Shown in pieces: positions 35,110-63,986 of a stretch of DNA of 64,000 bases. The stretch comes from an uncultured Lentisphaeraceae bacterium. Lineage in GTDB: Bacteria; Verrucomicrobiota; Kiritimatiellia; RFP12; DVOR01. The first letter of the stretch is position 1. Each line of letters begins with the position of its first letter. A model generated the notes under the pieces. That model was not told where the DNA came from. It worked only from the letters and a program-made list of their open reading frames with translations, and searched no databases. The DNA lies in assembly GCA_949289005.1 (NCBI GenBank), contig CASEMQ010000053.1:7715-71714 (forward strand), read 5' to 3'. Both the position numbers and the translations under genes were made by a program.

Positions 35110-37005
35110 TCAGTTCATTTTGAAGTCCGCGTCGACCACGTTGTCGTCGGGCTTCTTCGCGTCGCCCGCGTTGGACTGGGCGCCCGCGTCGCCGCCGGGG
35201 GCCGCGCCCGCGCCGGGCTGTTGGTACATCGAGGCGCCCGCGCCCTGGAGGATCTGCATGAGGGCGTCTTGCTTGGCCTTGATGGCCGCGTCGTCGGTAC
35301 CCTTCAGCGCCTCCTTCAGCTCGTTGGTGGCGGTCTCCACCTTCGTCTTCACGTCGGCGGGGAGTTTGTCGCCGTTTTCCTTGAGAAGCTTTTCGGCCTG
35401 GTAGGCCATCTGCTCGGCCTGGTTGCGGTTTTCGACGGCGGCCTTGCGCGCCTCGTCTTCCTTGGCGTAGCGCTCGGCGTCCTGGCGCATCCGCTCGATC
35501 TCGTCCTTGGAGAGGCCGGAGGAGGCGGTGATGGTGATCTTCTGCTCCTTGCCGGTGCCCTTGTCCTTGGCCGTCACGTTCAGGATGCCGTTCGGGTCGA
35601 TGTCGAAGGTCACCTCGATTTGCGGCACGCCGCGCGGGGCCGGCGGGATGCCGTCCAGGTTGAAGCGGCCGAGCAGCTTGTTGTCCGCCGCCATCTTGCG
35701 CTCGCCCTGGTAGATCTTGATTTCCACACCGGGCTGGTTGTCCGCAGCCGTCGAGAAAATCTCGCTCTTCTTGCAGGGGATGGTCGTGTTGCGGTCGATG
35801 AGCGGGGTGGCCACGCCGCCGAGCGTCTCGATCGAGAGAGTGAGCGGGGTCACGTCCAGCAACAGCACGTCCTTCACGTCGCCCTTGAGGATGCCGCCCT
35901 GGATGGCCGCGCCCATGGCCACGACCTCGTCGGGGTTCACGCCCTTGTGGGGCTCTTTGCCGAAGATTTCCTTGGCCTTCTCCTGCAGGCGCGGCATACG
36001 GGTCTGGCCGCCCACGAGCACCACTTCGTCCACCGAGGAGATGCCCGCGTCTTCCATGCACTTGCGGCACGGCCCAACCGTGCGCTCCACCAGGCTATCG
36101 GCCAACTGCTCCAGCTTGGCGCGGCTCAGCTGCATGTTCAGGTGCTTGGGGCCGGTGGCGTCCATCGTGATGAAGGGCAGGTTGATGTCGCTCGTCTGCG
36201 CGCTGGAGAGTTCGATTTTCGCCTTCTCCGCGGCTTCCTTCACGCGCTGGATGGCCTGCGTGTCCTTGCTCAGGTCGATGCCGGTCTGGTTCTTGAACTC
36301 GGCGAAGAGCCAGTTCATGATCGCCTGGTCCACGTCGTCGCCGCCCAGCATCGTGTCGCCGTTCGTCGCCTTCACCTCGAAGACGCCGTCGCCGATGTCC
36401 AGCACCGAGATGTCGAACGTGCCGCCGCCGAAGTCGTAGACCGCGATCTTCTCGTCCTTCTTCTTGTCCAGGCCATACGCCAACGAGGCCGCCGTCGGCT
36501 CGTTGATGATGCGCAGCACCTCCAGGCCGGCGATTTTGCCGGCGTCCTTCGTGGCCTGGCGCTGCGAATCGTTGAAGTACGCCGGCACCGTGATGATCGC
36601 CTGCGTCACGGGCTCGCCCAGGCGCATCTCCGCGTCCGCCTTCAGCTTCGCCAAAATCATGGCCGAAATCTCAGGCGGGGAGAAGGTCTTGTCGCCCACT
36701 TTCACCGCCGCGTCGCCGTTCGCCGCGCGGACGACCTCATACGGCACCATCGCGATTTCCTTCTGCATCTCATCGAACTTGCGCCCCATGAAACGCTTGA
36801 TGGAGTAAATCGTGCCCTTCGGGTTCATCACGGCCTGGCGCTTCGCGGGAAGCCCCACCAAACGCTCGCCGTTCGCCGTGAACGCCACGATGGAAGGCGT
36901 CGTGCGCTGGCCCTCCGCGTTTTCCAACACGCGAGCCTCGCCGCCCTCCATCACGGCCATGCACGAATTCGTCGTGCCCAAGTCAATGCCAAGAATCTTG
37001 CTCAT
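35110..37005 (-). CDS. dnaK: Chaperone DnaK
   Basis: [51 protein letters not shown]. Confidence 0.98.
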
Positions 37006-37057
37006 AACAAGTCGTTCCTTTCCAGGCGGGGTCACCGCCACTGTTCACGCCATCTTT

Positions 37058-37074
37058 TGCAAGTCCCGTGCCAA
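37058..37074 (-). promoter_or_regulatory. Sigma-54 (-24/-12) promoter of dnaK-groES-groEL
   Basis: Minus strand TTGGCACGGGACTTGCA matches TGGCACG-N4-TTGCW exactly, about 50 nt before the dnaK ATG. Confidence 0.75.
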
Positions 37075-37112
37075 ACGCGCCGACCCGCCCGCAAATCGCC
37101 CCTTCCCCGCCC

Positions 37113-37155
37113 CACCCTGCCAACACCGTGCCATCACCCTGCCAACACCGTGCCA
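37113..37155 (-). repeat. Two exact 21-nt direct repeats, period 22
   Basis: caccctgccaacaccgtgcca at 37113-37133 and 37135-37155; the minus strand contains TGGCACGGTGTTGGCA. Confidence 0.85.
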
Positions 37156-37178
37156 CCCCACCCTGCGCCCCGGGGCGC

Positions 37179-37340
37179 GACACGGCGTGTCTCGGGGCTC
37201 GTCACGGCGCGTCTCGATGTGAGGTACGGCGCATCTCGGAAAATGACCCCTTGTATAGATTGAAAACGTGGATTTGGCCCCGGCACGGCCCGCCCGCATT
37301 CAACAGGTTTTCAACAGCTTTCGCAAAGTTATCGACAAGG
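37179..37340 (+). repeat. Dispersed ~160-bp intergenic element, copy 1
   Basis: ACGGCG(T/C)(G/A)TCTCG units at 37182, 37204, 37226, then CGGAAAATGACCCC, GATTGAAAA, ATTCAACAGGTTTTCAACAG, AAAGTTATCGACAAG, shared with the copies at 47198 and 63824. Confidence 0.9.
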
Positions 37341-41315: not shown

Positions 41316-42677
41316 TCATGGGGCGAGGTGGGCGAGGAGGGCGTCGGCGGCGCGGCGGGCGTCGGCCAGGGCGCGGACGACGAGCGAGGGGCCGGAGACG
41401 CAGTCGCCGCAAGCGAAGAAGCGTTGCTCAGGGGCCTCGGAGCGCAGGAAGGGGCGTTCTTGGCGCGGGAGCACGGCGAGCAGGCTTTCCGGCACGCCAA
41501 TGAAACCCATCGCCAGCAGGACCAGGTCGGCGGGGAGCGTACGCGTCGTGCCGTCGATGGGACGTTGCGCCTGGGGCTTGCCGAGCGGCGAGAAGGTCCA
41601 GCCCACATCACGCACGCGGACGCCCGTGACGTGCCCTTCGCCCTCGAAGGCGAGGGTCTCGATCGACCACAGGCGTTCGCCGCCCTCCTCGTGCGAGGAG
41701 GAGGTGCGGAGCCGCCACGGCCAGCGCGGCCACGGCGTGGAGGGCGAGCGCATCTCGGGCGGGCGCGGCAAAATCTCGATTTGGGTGACGGAGCGGGCGC
41801 CTTGGCGGATGGCGGTGCCGACGCAGTCGCTGCCGGTGTCGCCGCCGCCGATGACGACGACGCGCAGCCCTTTGGCGGAAATCGGGGGCGCGGGGAGTTC
41901 GCCGGCCAGGGCGCGGTTCTCGCCCTTGAGGAAGTCGAGGGCGAAGGCCACGCCGGCAAGGTCGCGCCCAGGGACGCGGAGGTCGCGCGGGACGCCCGCG
42001 CCAACCGCCCAGAGGACGGCGTCGTAACGTTTGGCGAGGTATTCGGGGGCGATGTCGCGGCCGATTTCCGCGCCGCAGACGAAGCGGATGCCTTCGGCCT
42101 CCATGAGGGCGACGCGGCGGGCGACGATGCTTTTGGCGAGTTTGAAGTCGGGGATGCCGTAGCGCAGGAGTCCGCCAGGGGCGCGATCGCGTTCGTAGAG
42201 GGTCACGGCGACGCCGGCGCGGTTGAGCCTGTCGGCCGCGGCGAGGCCCGCCGGGCCGGAGCCGACGATGGCGACGTGTTTGCCGAGGCGGCGGGCGGGG
42301 GGCGTGGGGCGGACGCGCCCGGCGGCCCAGGCCGCGTCGCTGATGTGGCGCTCCAGCGCGCGGATGTCAACGGGCGCGCCGCCATCCATGCCGCGGGTGC
42401 AGGAGCCTTCGCAGAGGGCGGGGCAGACGCGGGAGGTGAACTCCGGGAAGGGGTCTGTCTGGGCGAGCAGTTCGTGGGCCAGGGCATCGTCGCCCGCGGC
42501 GACGGCGGCGTTGGTCTCGGGGATAGGGTTGGCCAAGGGGCACCCCAACCCATGGCAGAAGGGCAGGCCGCAGGCCATGCAGGCTTGGGCGCGCTCGCGG
42601 CAGGCCTCGGCGGCGAGGGGAATCTCGACCTCGGCCCAGTCGCGGCGGCGTTCTTCGATGGGGCGATACTCACTCAT
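41316..42677 (-). CDS. gltD: Glutamate synthase small subunit
   Basis: CMACGLPFCH..GCP, FPEFTSRVCPALCEGSC, GSGPAGL, GGLLRYGIPDFKL, IGGGDTGSDC, GPSLVVRA. Confidence 0.93.
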   Translation of the reverse strand: MSEYRPIEERRRDWAEVEIPLAAEACRERAQACMACGLPFCHGLGCPLANPIPETNAAVAAGDDALAHELLAQTDPFPEFTSRVCPALCEGSCTRGMDGGAPVDIRALERHISDAAWAAGRVRPTPPARRLGKHVAIVGSGPAGLAAADRLNRAGVAVTLYERDRAPGGLLRYGIPDFKLAKSIVARRVALMEAEGIRFVCGAEIGRDIAPEYLAKRYDAVLWAVGAGVPRDLRVPGRDLAGVAFALDFLKGENRALAGELPAPPISAKGLRVVVIGGGDTGSDCVGTAIRQGARSVTQIEILPRPPEMRSPSTPWPRWPWRLRTSSSHEEGGERLWSIETLAFEGEGHVTGVRVRDVGWTFSPLGKPQAQRPIDGTTRTLPADLVLLAMGFIGVPESLLAVLPRQERPFLRSEAPEQRFFACGDCVSGPSLVVRALADARRAADALLAHLAP

Positions 42678-45600
42678 GGGACTGTGCCTCCAAAACACGG
42701 CGATACTCAACGGGGAAGACGCGGACGAAGCGTGGGATCCACCCGGCCAGGTCGGCCAGGATACGCGTGGCCTTGGGGCTGCCGGTGGCGGCGACGTGGG
42801 CCTCCAGGAGGGCGCGGAGCTCGTCGGCGGCCGCGGTGCCGGGCTCGATGCTTTCGAGATCGACGTCGCCCAGGTTGCACCGCAGGTCAAAGTCGCCTGC
42901 CTCGTCCAGCACATAGGCCAAGCCGCCGGTCATGCCCGCGGCGAAGTTGTCGCCCGTCGGCCCCAGGATGAGGACGCGGCCGCCGGTCATGTATTCGCAG
43001 CCGTGGTCGCCCGTGCCCTCGCAGGTGAGGGTGGCGCCGGAGTTGCGGATGGCGAAGCGTTCGCCCACCTGCCCGGCGATGTGGATGCGCCCGGAGGTGG
43101 CGCCGTAGCCGATGACGTTGCCGGCCGCGACGTTCGCCTCGGGCGCGTAGCCCGGGATCGCGGGCGGGCTCACGGCGATGACGCCGCCTGAGAGTCCCTT
43201 GCCCACATAGTCGTTGGCCACGCCCTCCAGGGAGAGGGTCACGCCGCAGGCGAGGAAGGCGCCGAGGCTTTGCCCGGCCACGCCATGCAGACGCACGCGG
43301 AAGGTGCCGTCGGGGAAGCCTTCGCCACCCGTCGCGGCGACAATCTCGCCCGCGAGACCCGTGCCGACGGAGCGGTCGACGTTGTGCACGGGCAGATCGA
43401 CCGTGCGGGGTTCGCCGGCGCGCAGGGCTTCAAGCCCGCCGAGGGCGGGGAGGAGCGCCTCGCGGTCAAAGCGGCCGGCGGGCTCCTTCGCGGGGAGGGG
43501 TTCGTCCGGGTCCGGGGCGACGCGGCCGAAGAGCGCGGCGAAGTCGAGCGTCGCGGCCTTGCCTTGGGCGGCAGCCCCGTCCGTGCGGAGGAGGTCGGCG
43601 CGGCCGCACGCCTCGTCGAGGGAGCGCAGGCCGAGGGCGGCGAGCCACTCGCGCGTCTCGCGGGCGATGAAGGTGAGGAAGTTGATGATGTATTCCGGCT
43701 TGCCGGAGAAGCACTTGCGGCGCTCGGGGTCTTGCGTGGCGACGCCGGCCGGGCAGGTGTTGGCGTGGCATTGGCGCATCATGACGCAACCCAGGCAGAC
43801 AAGGATGGTGGTGGCGAAGCCGAACTCCTGCGCACCGAGCAAAGCGGCGACAACCACGTCGCGCCCGGTCTTGAGCTGGCCATCGACTTGGAGGCGGACG
43901 CGCCGGCGCAGGTGGTTGAGCGTCAGCGTGCGGTGGGTCTCGGAGAGGCCGAGTTCCCAGGGCAGGCCGGCGTGGTGGATGGAGGAGAGGGGCGAGGCCC
44001 CGGTGCCGCCATCGTGGCCGGCCACGAGGATGACATCGGCCTGGGCCTTGGCGACGCCCGCCGCGACGGTGCCGACGCCGGCCTCGGAGACGAGTTTGAC
44101 GGAGATGCGCGCGGCGGGGTTCACGGTGCGGAGGTCGTGGATGAGCTGCGCGAAGTCCTCGATGGAATAGATGTCGTGGTGCGGGGGCGGGGAGATGAGG
44201 GTGAGCCCAGGGAGCGCGTGGCGGATGCGCGCGACGAAGGCATCCACCTTGTGCCCGGGGAGTTGGCCGCCCTCGCCGGGCTTCGCGCCCTGGGCAATCT
44301 TGATTTGGATGTCGCGGGCGTTGCGCAAGTAGGCCGCGGTGACGCCGAAGCGCCCGGAGGCGATTTGCTTGATGGCGCTCGCGCGGTCGGTGCCGAAGCG
44401 CTCGGCGTTTTCGCCACCCTCGCCGGAGTTGCTCATCGCGCCGATGGCGTTCATGGCGCGGGCGATGGTCTCGTGCGCCTCGGGGCTGAGCGAGCCCAGG
44501 CTCATGGCGCCGGAGACGAAGTGCCGCAGGATGGACGCCTCGCTCTCCACCTCCTCGATCGGGATGGCCTGCGTGGGCTTGAAGGCGAAGAGCCCGCGCA
44601 AGGTGCACAGATGGCGGGCCTGGCCGTCGATGGCCCGGGAGAAACATTTGAAGCGCCCATAGTCGCCCTCGCGGACGGCTTGGCGGAAGTCCGCCAGGTT
44701 TTGCGGCGTCCAGAGGTGGCGTTCGCCGTCCGCACGGAAGACGTGTTCGCCGCCTGCCGGCAGGAGCGGCGTGGGCGCGACGGCGGAGGCGTTGCGGCGG
44801 TTGGCATCGCGCGCGATTTCGTCCAACCCAATGCCGCCCACGCGGCTGACGGTACCCGGGAGCCACCGCGCCACCAATGCCTCGCCCAGGCCGACGGCCT
44901 CGAAGATTTGGGACGAGCGGTAGGAGCGGAGCGTGGAGACGCCCATCTTGGACATGACCTTGAGGAGGCCCTTGTCGAGCGCTTGGACAAAGTGCCCCGT
45001 GGCGGTCACGGCGTCGCAGCCGGTCTGCCCCCGCGCGGCGAGGTCGGCCACCGTGGCCAAGGCCAGCCAAGGGTTCACGGCGGTGGCGCCGTAGCCCAGC
45101 AGAAGCGCCACGTGCATCACCTCGCGCACCTCGCCGGATTGGACGACAAGCCCGGTCTCGGGACGAACGCCACATTCGGCGAGCGCCCGATTGACGGTGG
45201 CGACGGCCAAGAGCGAGGGGATGGGCGCCTCCTCGGGCGTCAGGTCGCGGTCGGAGAGGATCAGAAGGCGATGGCCGCCCTCCTGCGCCAAAGACACGGC
45301 CTCCTGCGCGAGGCGTTCAAGCGCGACCGCCAACGCCGCGCCGTCGCCCCCCGCGGGGAAGGCCAGGCGCAACGTGGCGGGACGGAAGGCCGAGGTGCCG
45401 ACCCGCCCCAAAAGCTCCACCTCGGCATCGGTGAGGATGGGGCGTGTGAGTTTGATGAGACGCGCGTGGGCGGGGGTCTCCGCGAGGATGTTGGCGCGGT
45501 TGCCCACATAGGTCATCAGGCTCATCACCGACCGCTCGCGAATGGGGTCGATGGGCGGGTTGGTCACTTGGGCGAAACGTTGCTTGAAGTAATCGAAGAG

Positions 45601-47094
45601 CAGGCGCGGGCGCCCGGAAAGCACGGCAAGGGCGGAGTCGTCGCCCATCGAGCCGACCGGCTCCGCCCCCTGGCGCGCCATCGGCAAAACAATGGCCGAG
45701 ACATCCTCGCGGGAGTAGCCGAAGCGCCGTTGGAGGGCGACGAGCCCACCGGGCACGGCGGCGGGCGCGGTCTCGCGGAAAAGCCCGTTGACGACGATGC
45801 GGTTTTCCTCGACCCAGCGGCGATAAGGGCGCAGGCGAGCGACGTGCGACTTGATCTCGGCATCGCCCAGCAGACGATGGGCCTTCAGGTCGAGCCAGAG
45901 CATTTCGCCGGGGCGAAGGCGCCCGCGGCGCGCGACCTCGCCCGGCTCCAGGTCGAGCACGCCGGCCTCGGAGGCCAGCACGAAAGTGCCGTCTTTGCAC
46001 AGGGCGTAACGCGCGGGGCGCAGGCCGTTCCGGTCAAGGGCTGCACCGGCGTGCACGCCGTCCGAGAAGACAATGGCGGCAGGGCCGTCCCAAGGCTCCA
46101 TCAACGCGGATTCGTATTCCAGGAAGCCGCGGACGTCGCGCCCCATGCGATGGGTCGGCCCCCAAGCCTGCGGCATGAGCATGAGCATGGCGTGCGGGAG
46201 GGAACGCCCGGCGCGGACAAGCAACTCCAACATGTTGTCGAGGCAGGCGGAGTCCGACTGCCCCGGGGGAATGAGCGGCAGGGCGGTGGGCAGGTCGGGG
46301 AGCAATGGGCTCGCGAGCGCGGGCTCGCGGGCGGCAAGCGCGTTGAGGTTGCCGCGCAAGGTGTTGATCTCGCCGTTGTGGGCCAAAAGGCGGAAGGGTT
46401 GCGCGAGCGACCAGGTGGGGAAGGTGTTGGTGCTGTAGCGCTGGTGGACCACGACCAGGGGCGCGGCAAAGTCGTCCGCGCGCAAGTCAGGGTAAAAGGC
46501 GTCCAGCCGTTGCGCCAAGACGAGCCCCTTGTAGACGATGCTCCGCGCGGAGAGCGAGCAGACGTAAAGCCGCTCGCCCAACGTCTTCTCCAAATGCCGC
46601 CGCAGGATAAACAGCCGCCGCTCCAGGGCCTCCCCCTCAAGCCCTTCCGCCGCCGGCGCCAAGAAAAACTGGCGGATGCACGGGCAAGTGGCGCGCGCGG
46701 AGCGGCCGAGCGCCGTGGGGTCGGTGGGCACCTCGCGCCAACCCAGCGTACGGAACCCATCGTGACCCACACATGCCTCAATCTCGGCCTCCGCGCCTTC
46801 CCCGCCGAAAAGCATGGCCACGGCGTAACGCCCCGGCGCAGGCAACCCCGGCACGCGCGCACGAAAGAATCCGTCCGGAAGCGTCGCCAAAATCCCCGCG
46901 CCATCGCCCGTCTCCGGATCCCACCCCGTCGCGCCGCGGTGCGTAAGCCGCCGCAAAACGGTGAGCCCTTGCTCGACAATGCGATGCGACGGACGATTGT
47001 TGAGGTCGGCCACAAGCCCGACCCCACAGGCATCGTGCTCGAAACGCGGGTCGTACAAACCCTGGCGCGCGGGCAATCCGGAAAATGCATTCAT
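42670..47094 (-). CDS. gltB: Glutamate synthase large subunit
   Basis: EHDACGVG, HQRYSTNT, HNGEINT, EPWDGPA, FAQVTNPPID, AQGAKPGEGGQLPG, GDHGCEYMTGG; AAGGA RBS before ATG 47094. Confidence 0.96.
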   Translation of the reverse strand: MNAFSGLPARQGLYDPRFEHDACGVGLVADLNNRPSHRIVEQGLTVLRRLTHRGATGWDPETGDGAGILATLPDGFFRARVPGLPAPGRYAVAMLFGGEGAEAEIEACVGHDGFRTLGWREVPTDPTALGRSARATCPCIRQFFLAPAAEGLEGEALERRLFILRRHLEKTLGERLYVCSLSARSIVYKGLVLAQRLDAFYPDLRADDFAAPLVVVHQRYSTNTFPTWSLAQPFRLLAHNGEINTLRGNLNALAAREPALASPLLPDLPTALPLIPPGQSDSACLDNMLELLVRAGRSLPHAMLMLMPQAWGPTHRMGRDVRGFLEYESALMEPWDGPAAIVFSDGVHAGAALDRNGLRPARYALCKDGTFVLASEAGVLDLEPGEVARRGRLRPGEMLWLDLKAHRLLGDAEIKSHVARLRPYRRWVEENRIVVNGLFRETAPAAVPGGLVALQRRFGYSREDVSAIVLPMARQGAEPVGSMGDDSALAVLSGRPRLLFDYFKQRFAQVTNPPIDPIRERSVMSLMTYVGNRANILAETPAHARLIKLTRPILTDAEVELLGRVGTSAFRPATLRLAFPAGGDGAALAVALERLAQEAVSLAQEGGHRLLILSDRDLTPEEAPIPSLLAVATVNRALAECGVRPETGLVVQSGEVREVMHVALLLGYGATAVNPWLALATVADLAARGQTGCDAVTATGHFVQALDKGLLKVMSKMGVSTLRSYRSSQIFEAVGLGEALVARWLPGTVSRVGGIGLDEIARDANRRNASAVAPTPLLPAGGEHVFRADGERHLWTPQNLADFRQAVREGDYGRFKCFSRAIDGQARHLCTLRGLFAFKPTQAIPIEEVESEASILRHFVSGAMSLGSLSPEAHETIARAMNAIGAMSNSGEGGENAERFGTDRASAIKQIASGRFGVTAAYLRNARDIQIKIAQGAKPGEGGQLPGHKVDAFVARIRHALPGLTLISPPPHHDIYSIEDFAQLIHDLRTVNPAARISVKLVSEAGVGTVAAGVAKAQADVILVAGHDGGTGASPLSSIHHAGLPWELGLSETHRTLTLNHLRRRVRLQVDGQLKTGRDVVVAALLGAQEFGFATTILVCLGCVMMRQCHANTCPAGVATQDPERRKCFSGKPEYIINFLTFIARETREWLAALGLRSLDEACGRADLLRTDGAAAQGKAATLDFAALFGRVAPDPDEPLPAKEPAGRFDREALLPALGGLEALRAGEPRTVDLPVHNVDRSVGTGLAGEIVAATGGEGFPDGTFRVRLHGVAGQSLGAFLACGVTLSLEGVANDYVGKGLSGGVIAVSPPAIPGYAPEANVAAGNVIGYGATSGRIHIAGQVGERFAIRNSGATLTCEGTGDHGCEYMTGGRVLILGPTGDNFAAGMTGGLAYVLDEAGDFDLRCNLGDVDLESIEPGTAAADELRALLEAHVAATGSPKATRILADLAGWIPRFVRVFPVEYRRVLEAQSHE

Positions 47095-47123
47095 GCTCGG
47101 TTCCTTCATGGTTTTCCCCTTTT

Positions 47124-47140
47124 TGCAAACACCGTGCCAA
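47124..47140 (-). promoter_or_regulatory. Sigma-54 (-24/-12) promoter of gltBD
   Basis: Minus strand TTGGCACGGTGTTTGCA matches TGGCACG-N4-TTGCW, about 30 nt before the gltB ATG. Confidence 0.8.
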
Positions 47141-47197
47141 TCCCACGCCGCCATCGCAAAAACCCTCCCGCACGGCCCCGTCGGCAACACCACCCCG

Positions 47198-47360
47198 GCT
47201 TGTCGATAACTTTACGAAATCTGTTGAAAACCTGTTGAATGCCGACGGGGCCGGAAGGGGCTCAAAACCCTCTTTTCAATCTATACAAGGGGTCGTTTTC
47301 CGAGACGCGCCGTACCTCCGGTCGAGACACGCCGCATCCCAAGATGAGAGACGCCGCATC
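47198..47360 (-). repeat. Dispersed ~160-bp intergenic element, copy 2
   Basis: Reverse complement carries the same blocks as copy 1; repeat units at 47308, 47330, 47352 (period 22). Confidence 0.9.
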
Positions 47361-47630
47361 CCGCCAAGACCCCCATCGGGGCGTTCGTGACCGTCCAACC
47401 GGAAATTGCCCGGCCAAGACCGCCGAAGACCCACCGGGGCGACAAAGGCAATCGCGTACCTGCCGGCCGGGCAACCGCCACGCCCCGTAAAACGCGGCGC
47501 GTTACACAAATGTGTCGCCCGGCGCCCAAGCGGATTACATTCCTTGCAGAATAGTCACAATATTTTGCAAAGGAAACCGTTAAAGCATTAAAGGCCGCCA
47601 GCGCGGCGAACGCGACCGGAGAAAAGTGTA

Positions 47631-49170
47631 ATGTACGGCGGGGTGTTACTCCGTTTCAACGGGGAGAACGGGGCGACCACGGTGCGTTACGTCCAGCAAA
47701 TCAAAGGCGACGAGGCTATGGAAAAGCGCGGCCTGTTCGAGCCGGGGAGGGTCTTCGTGCAGAAGCGGTGGCGGAAAATACGAGGAGGCGAAAAAGGCGG
47801 ATGGGCAGAACGAGAGCAAATCGCACACCGAAGCCGTGGTGAAGGCGCGAGCGAAACAAGTTCTCGGGAAGGAGTTTAAATATCTTTTCGAGGTCTATCA
47901 CGGCACGCCGCACGCGGGGTGGACGCGTTGGGAGCGTGGGTACGGCGGGACGACGGGGCTGGGCTATGCGTATTTCGCGCCGCGCGTGATTACGGCGGCG
48001 GAATATGCCGATACGTATGGCACGCCGAACAATGGGCTGGCGGACATCAGCGACATGCAAAGGTTCGGCATCTCGGAGGCGGTTTACCACATGGTGGTGG
48101 GGATGAACAATCCGCTTATTGTCGATTGCCGCAGGGCGAGCTGGAACAATATCCGGGTGAAGAACAGGCGGACGGTTCGCACGGACGAAATCCTGAACGT
48201 GCTGAGGTTTGGCGAACTGGGTTACGATGGGGTGATTTTCCTGAACGTGCACGACAGCCCGCTGAACACGAAGGTGCATGGTTATGATGTTGATGTGGTG
48301 CCGCTCGGGCCGGTTGGGAAGAATGGGAAGAACGGCGACGTGTCCCGACAGATGAAGTCGCTGGACGGCGTGACGGTGAGCGACGTGAACGTGCCGGAGT
48401 TCTTCGGCGCGATTGACATCCTCGACCGTTTCGACGTGCGCAACCCGGACGTCCGCTGGAGCACGGAAGACGCGGGTGCGCCGCGTTTTTCGGAGACGCG
48501 GGAGGGGAAGCGGATTGTGGCGGCGTTGGTGGACAACCTGATTGCGCACCAGGCGGACTTGGCGTTCGGGAACGAGGCGGTGGCGGAGCGTCTGGCGCAG
48601 AAGGGGAACGCGGGCGTGGGGAAGTGGAACAAGGTGACGCGGGCCTCGGAGAACGGGGCGGTGTTGCCAGGGAGCGCGGAGGAGCTGGCGCGGGAGGAGG
48701 CGTTCAGGGCGTGGCAGTTCGGGCGGCCGGGGGGCGAAGACCTGAAGGGCTTGGTGCGTGCGTGCGGTGGGGCGGCAAACTGGCTGGACGTGGTGGGGAC
48801 GGCGTACGAGGTGCTGTCGGCGATACGTTCGGGGAACCTGCTCGGTGGGCTGAACAAGACGGTGGCGGAGCGTTTCGGGAAGAACGAGAAGGAGGCGGTG
48901 GGGTGGTACGTGCAGAGGATTGTGTCTGCGCGTGCGACGGACTACGGACAGAAGTGCTACCTGATGGGGCGGAAGTTCGCGATGGACCTGATGAAGGAGG
49001 CGAACAGAAGCGCGGCGGCGTCGTTGCGGCGTGAGTACGAGGGGAAACTCTCGGAGGAGCGCGGGAAGACGCGGAAGGCGAAGGAGCGTGCGCGTGGGCT
49101 TGAGCGGACGGCGGAGCGGCGCAAGGCGAACCTTCGCGCGGCGGAAGCGAAGATCGATTTTATCAAAGCT
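47631..49170 (+). pseudogene. Second polyvalent-protein fragment with ART-PolyVal-like domain (ends approximate)
   Basis: EVYHGT...YAYFAP...AAEYA...MNNPLIVDC..ASWNNI...GYDGVIFLNVHD...QMKSLD...RFDVRNPDVRWS parallels the ART domain at ~11780-12350. There is a frameshift near 47775 and no credible start. Confidence 0.7.
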
Positions 49171-55034: not shown

Positions 55035-55109
55035 GCCGATGTAGCTCAGTGGTAGAGCTACTGATTTGTAATCAGTGGGTCGTGGGTCCGAATCCCACCG
55101 TCGGCTCCA
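55035..55109 (+). tRNA. tRNA-Thr(TGT)
   Basis: GCCGATG/CGTCGGC acceptor stem, D arm GCTCAGTGGTAGAGC, anticodon arm ACTGA-TTTGTAA-TCAGT, T arm GTGGG-TCCGAAT-CCCAC, encoded CCA. Confidence 0.95.
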
Positions 55110-63747: not shown

Positions 63748-63823
63748 CCGCCCACACCCTCGCCATCCTCTTCCCCACATCGCCTCCGCATCGTCCCCCC
63801 CTGTCAAGAACGCCCCGCGGGGA

Positions 63824-63986
63824 AACGCGCCGCGCCGCGCCGCGGGATGCGCCGTGCCGCGACCCGAGGTACGGCGCATCCCGGAAAATGACCCCGCTCC
63901 CTGATTGAAAAGTCGCTTCCGAGCCCCCTCCGGCCCCGCTCGTATTCAACAGGTTTTCAACAGATTCGCGAAAGTTATCGACAAGG
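63824..63986 (+). repeat. Dispersed ~160-bp intergenic element, copy 3
   Basis: Same invariant blocks; more degenerate 22-bp-period units at 63827, 63849, 63871. Confidence 0.88.

Follow-up and report, generated by a model that had tools for sequence, protein, structure and literature searches.

The 64,000-nucleotide stretch of DNA analysed here (the window) lies in contig C53 of a genome assembly from an uncultured Lentisphaeraceae bacterium (GCA_949289005.1) and holds three copies of a short element. The element is a high-copy dispersed intergenic family, with about 90 members of roughly 170-220 bp in this genome. Its copies carry direct 9-mers that are most likely true DnaA boxes of the clade, and DnaA probably binds them. 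Our preferred reading, to which we give about an even chance as a whole, is that of a species-restricted repeat family resembling bacterial interspersed mosaic elements (BIMEs) and miniature inverted-repeat transposable elements (MITEs), the copies of which are non-origin DnaA-box clusters and form a distributed DnaA sink. The assembly (labelled G000) comprises 2,357,542 bp in 71 contigs, has 66.6% G+C and is 94% complete.

An earlier note, made from the letters of the window, had described three elements with a set of shared parts, and all of these were found, aligning as described. The extents of the copies were converted from matches, in C53 coordinates, of R1, a sequence-only profile made from alignment A2 of 76 copies:

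37176-37340, plus strand: copy 1 (R1 match C53:44890-45054, E 1.7e-36), between a divergent Hsp70/DnaK-like open reading frame (ORF) and lepA
37177-37194, 37199-37216 and 37221-37238 (region 37177-37238), plus strand: the three 22-bp degenerate palindromic units of copy 1, similar to repetitive extragenic palindromes (REPs)
37239-37266, plus strand: central conserved block of copy 1, with GAAAATGACCCC, the 7-nt allele TTGTATA and then GATTGAAAA
37267-37296, plus strand: GC-rich spacer of copy 1, variable in sequence (identity 0.54) and constant in length (indels nearly nil)
37297-37337, plus strand: three direct DnaA-box-type 9-mers of copy 1, CATTCAACA (37297-37305), TTTTCAACA (37308-37316) and TTATCGACA (37329-37337)
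47198-47364, minus strand: copy 2 (R1 match C53:54912-55078, E 8.5e-41), with boxes at 47241-47233, 47230-47222 and 47209-47201
63821-63986, plus strand: copy 3 (R1 match C53:71535-71700, E 2.3e-39), with boxes at 63943-63951, 63954-63962 and 63975-63983

Three units open each window copy, centred on CGGCG or CGCCG and standing in exact 22-bp steps (centres 37185, 37207 and 37229 in copy 1). They are followed by GAGGTACGGCGC, GGAAAAYGACCCC, GATTGAAAA, a variable spacer of constant length, a 20-mer and a 15-mer, the last two being identical across the three copies. The box starts of copy 1 (37297, 37308 and 37329) are 11 and 21 bp apart. Immediately left of this copy, at about 37110-37165, there is also a short tandem repeat (ccaacaccgtgcca...). 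Its repeat number differs between strains, since 11 nt are inserted behind 37139 in contigs from X2 and X4.

Three copies turned out to be a large undercount. A fuzzy 38-bp core pattern, with at most 6 substitutions allowed, matches 76 places in the assembly, and these make up the 76-copy set. The genome-wide profile built from them, as the earlier note had proposed, gives 101 matches, of which 89 span most of the model (approximately one copy per 26 kb); the family count is the number of G000 rows of R1 with E <= 1.5e-18, by our own count. With at most 2 mismatches allowed, the genome contains 61 occurrences of the 20-mer; for the 15-mer the number is 73. Both counts are far above chance. A second, unrelated intergenic repeat family of ~330 bp (88-92% identity) is present at C16:24330-24651, C40:1357-1636, C35:16749-17048, C19:321-651 and C42:1497-1824, and also at about C67:92390-92717, where it directly adjoins a copy of the box-bearing element.

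From left to right, a copy consists of one or two optional inverted box 9-mers, the unit array, a conserved centre, a spacer of fixed length (~30 bp) and the direct boxes, with a tail laid out as GAAAAYGACCCC-N7-GATTGAAAA-~30 variable nt-box-box-N12-box. Mean pairwise identity over the 76 copies is 0.98 in GATTGAAAA, 0.94 in box 3, 0.92 in box 2 and 0.87 in GAAAAYGACCCC; it is 0.82, 0.75 and 0.63 in units 3, 2 and 1, 0.54 in both the variable spacer and the 7-nt slot, and 0.38-0.59 in the short spacers, where 0.29 is the random expectation for unconstrained parts. That spacers vary in sequence while keeping their length, as was first seen in the window, holds in all 76 copies (the 173-nt alignment is nearly gap-free). 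A hairpin in the variable spacer is unsupported, with folding z-scores of only -0.8 and -1.3 on the two strands (all z-scores given here rest on 40 mononucleotide, not dinucleotide, shuffles per sequence). The main alleles of the 7-nt slot are GCTCCCT (31 copies), GCGTATA (24) and TTGTATA (15). These alleles define no clades, identity in the unconstrained region being 0.538 within allele groups versus 0.518 between them, and the family is therefore a mosaic.

The two ends of the element differ. On the right the edge is sharp: similarity halts exactly after ...ATCGACA in seven copies from two subfamilies, which are 92-97% identical and share extra sequence on the left side only. On the left, inverted boxes (TGTYGAWAA, at most 1 mismatch) occur in 34 of the 76 copies, one or two each, near -155, -145 and -135 from the core; an equal-sized right-hand window contains one in a single copy of the 76. 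The earlier statement that terminal inverted repeats are lacking is correct for the three window copies, none of which has a left box; in the family as a whole, 34 copies have such boxes and 42 do not. Thirteen divergent members carry 2-4 boxes at 11-12 bp spacing, or two about 23 bp apart, with the box variants exchanged. In one divergent member (C41:26243-26397, minus strand) the left edge bears a directly oriented canonical TTATCCACA, with several GTCCAC repeats before it.

The suspicion that the 9-mers are of DnaA-box type was borne out by comparison with the organism's own dnaA region. The same variants (TTTTCAACA, TTATCGACA and TTATCAACA) are found in the element and around dnaA and dnaN on contig C1, where strict boxes form three clusters flanking the two genes:

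C1:59670-60127: 8 strict boxes
C1:61644-61940: 6 strict boxes
C1:63769-63953: 5 strict boxes

DnaA itself was named by family match (Bac_DnaA_C, PF08299, at C1:62436-62630), with a single such protein in each of 5 genomes, and its ORF is C1:62337-63737 (minus strand); DnaN, MnmG/GidA, LepA and Hsp70/DnaK were named by reading translations. A MnmG/GidA-like ORF adjoins the DnaN and DnaA ORFs on C1. Five congeners, whose DnaA is 64-80% identical to that of G000, have these box variants at corresponding distances upstream of dnaA, and downstream of it as well. For example, the upstream boxes lie at -179, -114, -78 and -40 in G000, at -180, -115, -79 and -41 in G009, and at -195, -130, -94 and -56 in G016. 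Further afield, more than 119 metagenome contigs contain an exact match to the two-box 19-mer TTCRACAGGTTTTCAACAG; of the 80 that were fetched, 8 have it next to dnaA or dnaN, the DnaA of these eight being 27-38% identical to that of G000. The variants are 1-2 mismatches from TTATCCACA, and an excerpt of PMC4285127 states up to two such mismatches for the boxes of known origins. Where the element's boxes carry substitutions, these are at positions 3 and 6 of the box, and the boxes of the dnaA region vary at these two positions as well. Conservation together with variant swapping is the pattern that would be expected if box function, rather than the exact sequence, were kept.

Box numbers point the same way. 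The pattern TT[ATG]TC[GA]ACA occurs 258 times in the genome, compared to ~23 expected by composition and 34 for a reversed control pattern. In or beside the 76 copies lie 169 of these boxes; 89 are elsewhere, including 19 in the three C1 clusters. Four congeners have 31 (G009), 61 (G016), 51 (G004) and 49 (G007). That is, because some ninety copies each bring boxes, the total in this genome is roughly five times that of the four related species searched. The copies have several own-type DnaA boxes close together outside the origin (three direct boxes per copy) and, since the 9-mers are those of the dnaA region, a non-origin role in DnaA loading or titration is a reasonable reading. A divergent copy, at C1:59771-59917, is itself located in the box cluster downstream of dnaN; nothing marks it as the source of the family. 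The same cluster adjoins a DNA-methyltransferase-like ORF and a large ORF (C1:57000-59604, read from translations), which may be a restriction-modification pair.

The 22-bp units also occur apart from the rest of the element. Their consensus is a degenerate palindrome, GRGAYRC-GSC-GYRTCYC, and arrays usually hold three units (range 2-5). Relatives were searched with R1 in 28 genomes of the genus (G000 and 27 congeners) and, at E <= 1e-6, in 123 further genomes of the order (151 in total). In the genus search the profile finds 53 matches in G009, 17 in G015, 2 each in G001 and G006, and 1 in G008. The congener matches listed span the unit part only and then run into a different tail; a few in G009 reach the centre. 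Units that occur across the genus with other tails make the G000 element a genus-level palindromic repeat with a special tail, and because the congener arrays are free of boxes, the units resemble REP units rather than the iterons for which they had been taken. They are also short, imperfect, extragenic, numerous and arranged in arrays, as REP and BIME units are. The REP-associated tyrosine transposase family (RAYT, PF01797) has no match in G000 or in any of five congeners, while 6 of 14 control genomes matched. Upstream of lepA, two congeners (L137 in G004, L139 in G007) carry different palindromic intergenic repeats (GAGACCCTATAGTGGTC...) in arrays, and the genus seems rich in different REP-like families.

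Outside this genome the full element was found once among the 27 congeners, in G016, and in none of the 123 other genomes of the order. With 89 copies here and one elsewhere, it is not a position-conserved single-copy locus among relatives. The G016 copy belongs to a 1.5-kb segment matching G000 C62:1-1512 at 95.0% identity. This is closer than lepA (89.7%) or dnaA (81.1%, all at the nucleotide level), and the copy therefore looks recently exchanged. In the exchanged segment (L264, C62:1-1512; L111, the end of G016 contig C16) the element is flanked by a 27-bp direct repeat containing the palindrome GGACAATCTAGAGGTACGTCTAGATTGTCC. The exact 38-bp core pattern had no match in public genome contigs or in metagenome contigs. 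The central pattern gave 22 loci in public genome contigs, all chance-like apart from L024, a record from an uncultured Lentisphaeraceae bacterium in which the locus of the G016 copy recurs, and three loci in contigs of uncultured Collinsella metagenome-assembled genomes (L013, L015 and L026). The latter carry GAAACGACCCCGTCCCCAGATTGAAAA, close to the element centre GAAAACGACCCCGCTCCCTGATTGAAAA, as an inverted pair in L015 and L026; this motif could be chance or a shared mobile-element end. Searches of 72,556 plasmid records and 50,697 phage records gave no match.

Within the genome, gene contexts were taken from a crude ORF picker based on G+C at third codon positions (1385 calls, 77% coverage), not a proper gene finder. 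By this call the midpoints of 70 of the 76 copies lie outside genes, with flanking genes co-directional in 40 cases, divergent in 19, convergent in 7 and missing on one side in 10. Copy orientation is unrelated to GC skew (32/76) or to the local majority gene strand (40/76).

How does the sink reading compare with other explanations? One view is that the family is a purely selfish miniature transposon, and that the 9-mers at its ends are transposase sites (TGT...ACA, as in Mu, Tn7 and IS21) merely resembling DnaA boxes; in a variant, DnaA would act as a host factor of transposition, as at the ends of Tn5. We consider this unlikely, although much would fit: the element is small, non-coding and high-copy and, in the 151 genomes of the order, is confined to a single species (the G016 copy aside), 34 of the 76 copies have left inverted boxes, the right end is sharp at ...ACA, there are two closely similar subfamilies, and contigs break at copies. 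In addition, an excerpt of PMC3347997 places a DnaA site in each outside and mosaic end of Tn5 and lists DnaA among the host factors of Tn5 transposition. Yet target duplications are absent, as reported from the window: none of 34 copies with definable ends has a flanking direct repeat of at least 4 bp, and the longest shared k-mer averages 2.65, versus 2.59 +/- 0.25 in shuffled pairs. Among the three Pfam families searched in this 94% complete genome no partner transposase appeared (an absence that stays unproven, mobile genes often being unassembled): PF01797 and DDE_Tnp_1 (PF01609) have no match, and the one match of rve (PF00665), at C19:32948-33244, has flanks unlike the element. With neither a target duplication nor a cognate transposase seen, the IS21-type end that the earlier note offered as an alternative is likewise unsupported. 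Nor does the assembly contain a multi-copy repeat longer than 1.6 kb. Contigs of runs X2-X4, from near-identical strains sharing 71-74% of sampled words, were compared at two loci, and copies 1 and 2 are at the same places. A contig of X3 spans 46354-47919 and bridges copy 2, contigs of X2 and X4 run into copies, and among the joints listed for these two loci and three runs none skips the element. The left end is also absent or degenerate in 42 of the 76 copies. In addition, both box variants are the clade-specific boxes beside dnaA, and divergent copies exchange one for another. Another view, which we hold to be less likely still, is that the element is a module for one or more other DNA-binding proteins (nucleoid-associated proteins, organisers of the chromosome, or a regulator that binds the palindromes and GATTGAAAA as a dimer), its likeness to DnaA boxes being secondary. 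Conservation of GATTGAAAA and GAAAAYGACCCC equal to or above that of the boxes, the kept 22-bp phasing of the units and the fixed spacer lengths, which suggest protein-DNA geometry, all speak for it. However, no candidate protein was identified, the units are found without the tail in congeners, the boxes match dnaA boxes in six genomes of the genus, and orientation is unbiased with respect to skew and gene strand.

Three further proposals of the earlier note fared worse. A structured non-coding RNA, or a transcribed REP-type RNA element, is very unlikely. The unit region does fold much more stably than its shuffles (z-scores of -3.7 and -3.0 for the plus and minus strands in the 76-copy alignment) and its variation on the plus strand is G-U compatible, but the covariation test found none: RNAalifold arrives at -9.4 kcal/mol, to which covariation contributes -0.06, the named hairpins have 76.7% paired cells versus 76.0% in shuffles and a covariation of 0.200 versus 0.188 (equalled by 29 of 500 shuffles), and an alternative inter-unit pairing register does no better. 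Since pairing matches that of shuffled columns, it is explained by column composition. The centre and variable part fold at z ~0, Rfam has no match on copy 1 even at E up to 1, and no promoter-like or terminator-like site lies inside copies 1 or 2. The sole Rfam match in the window at the gathering score is a tRNA gene at 55035-55106 (plus strand). Auxiliary or plasmid-like origins, built of 22-bp iterons, DnaA boxes and an AT-rich patch, are extremely unlikely. There is a formal likeness to iteron origins such as those of RK2, P1 and F, and one member does lie in the box cluster downstream of dnaN. Against this stand 89 copies in 2.36 Mb, only one of them near dnaA or dnaN; units that are palindromes and stand alone in congeners; an AT-rich stretch that measures just 9 nt in the 31 of 76 copies bearing the GCTCCCT allele, and 16 nt in most of the rest; orientation that ignores GC skew; and the lack of any match among the plasmid and phage records. 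No replication-initiator gene stood out beside the copies read, although no search was aimed at one. A reading of TATAGATTGAAAA as a DnaA-trio or unwinding sequence was tried and rejected; it lies ~30-40 bp from the boxes, and its TATA part is missing in 31 copies. Readings of the motifs as parS-like or matS-like sites were considered as well and set aside. The least likely of the readings weighed here is an upstream enhancer for sigma-54 promoters, which started from the following features:

37058-37073, minus strand: sigma-54-type site (TGGCAC-N5-TTGCA) ahead of the Hsp70/DnaK-like ORF, ~100 bp from copy 1
47124-47139, minus strand: sigma-54-type site of the same form ahead of a 1507-aa ORF, with copy 2 ~60 bp upstream
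35110-37041, minus strand: Hsp70/DnaK-like ORF
42670-47193, minus strand: 1507-aa ORF

Genome-wide there are 6 strict sites, only 2 of which are within 500 bp of any of the 76 copies, and this contradicts the enhancer reading at the level of the family; by the crude gene call, moreover, copies occupy every intergenic context, including the 7 between convergent genes.

We return to the preferred reading, a distributed DnaA sink. Mechanistically, the phased boxes of each copy would be bound by DnaA as the box arrays of an origin are. Because a sizeable unwinding element is absent, each copy would then act as a non-origin DnaA-box cluster, and the copies jointly would form a distributed sink (datA-like titration) that doubles as the chromosome replicates. 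The palindromic units and GATTGAAAA would probably be bound by other factors. A stronger version, which we put forward tentatively and consider doubtful, is that the repeat family has been co-opted as a datA-like sink, with ~90 clusters kept by selection at each site. The clusters would then determine how much DnaA is required to initiate replication, and would titrate it anew with each passing fork.

Several points weigh against the sink. DnaA binding and an effect on initiation are both predicted from sequence. The best-kept motif, GATTGAAAA, is not a DnaA box, and the main binder may be some other factor. No more than one full copy was found in the congeners searched, and the family is therefore not essential to the genus. 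A selfish repeat whose extra boxes are tolerated as a by-product could account equally well for the five-fold rise, the ends could be conserved to meet the needs of mobilisation and not for a host function, and the variable spacer might just have a higher mutation rate. The genes upstream of lepA differ in all five congeners compared, so that orthologous empty and filled sites are not comparable. Finally, the assembly is in 71 fragments, and cumulative GC skew on C1 gives no clear or usable origin signal.

The element has parallels in several known systems, and matches none of them fully. In enterobacteria, BIMEs are mosaics of palindromic units, some with a site for integration host factor (IHF). 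Like REP sequences and BIMEs, the present family is extragenic and high-copy, with arrays of short imperfect palindromes, variable unit numbers and other motifs, and it shares with BIMEs the mosaic of alleles and putative sites for a host DNA-binding protein. Its sequences are unrelated, however, RAYT was not found in this genome or in five congeners, and the host-factor sites are phased DnaA boxes in a tail of fixed polarity instead of IHF sites. A similar comparison can be made with the Correia elements of Neisseria, MITEs that carry an IHF site and promoter parts, end in clear terminal inverted repeats and duplicate a TA target. Both are miniature dispersed repeats that spread putative host-protein sites through intergenic DNA, yet the clear terminal inverted repeats and the TA duplication are not present as such here. 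If the element is mobile, it would also resemble Tn5/IS50 in having a terminus with a DnaA-binding site. Tn5, with one box per end and a known transposase, makes 9-bp target duplications; here there are 2-4 phased boxes, and neither a transposase nor a duplication was found. The iteron origins of plasmids RK2 (oriV), P1 (oriR) and F (ori2) combine direct repeats of ~22-bp period with DnaA boxes and an AT-rich patch, a likeness set off by palindromic units that are box-free in congeners, a very short AT part, ~90 chromosomal copies and the absence of plasmid matches.

A further parallel, in proposed function, is with datA, DARS1 and DARS2 of E. coli and the DnaA-box clusters of B. subtilis, which likewise consist of several close boxes in intergenic DNA away from the origin. 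Excerpts of PMC4585315 and PMC2533591 describe such non-origin loci as binding DnaA and modulating initiation. They are few, single-copy loci at conserved positions (B. subtilis has eight intergenic regions stably bound by DnaA). Here, by contrast, one species owes ~90 near-identical clusters to a repeat family of which the congeners searched hold no more than one full copy, no IHF site was recognised in the element, and DnaA binding is a prediction from the box motifs. Dispersed repeats with host-factor sites, non-origin DnaA-box clusters and a DnaA site in Tn5 ends were all known already. Our search of a collection of open-access papers turned up no description of a repeat family bearing arrays of origin-type DnaA boxes.

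For annotators, the family is a caution against calling origins from DnaA-box clusters alone, given that ~90 such clusters lie outside the dnaA region of this genome. For the biology of the organism, if DnaA binds the copies, one species has raised its chromosomal load of DnaA boxes about five-fold over its congeners. Its relatives would then provide a natural test of how box number relates to the control of initiation, and of mobile DNA rewiring a core circuit of the cell cycle. Were the family indeed a co-opted sink, an uncultured lineage of Lentisphaerota would offer a natural example of the initiator-titration principle, with mobile DNA as its building material.

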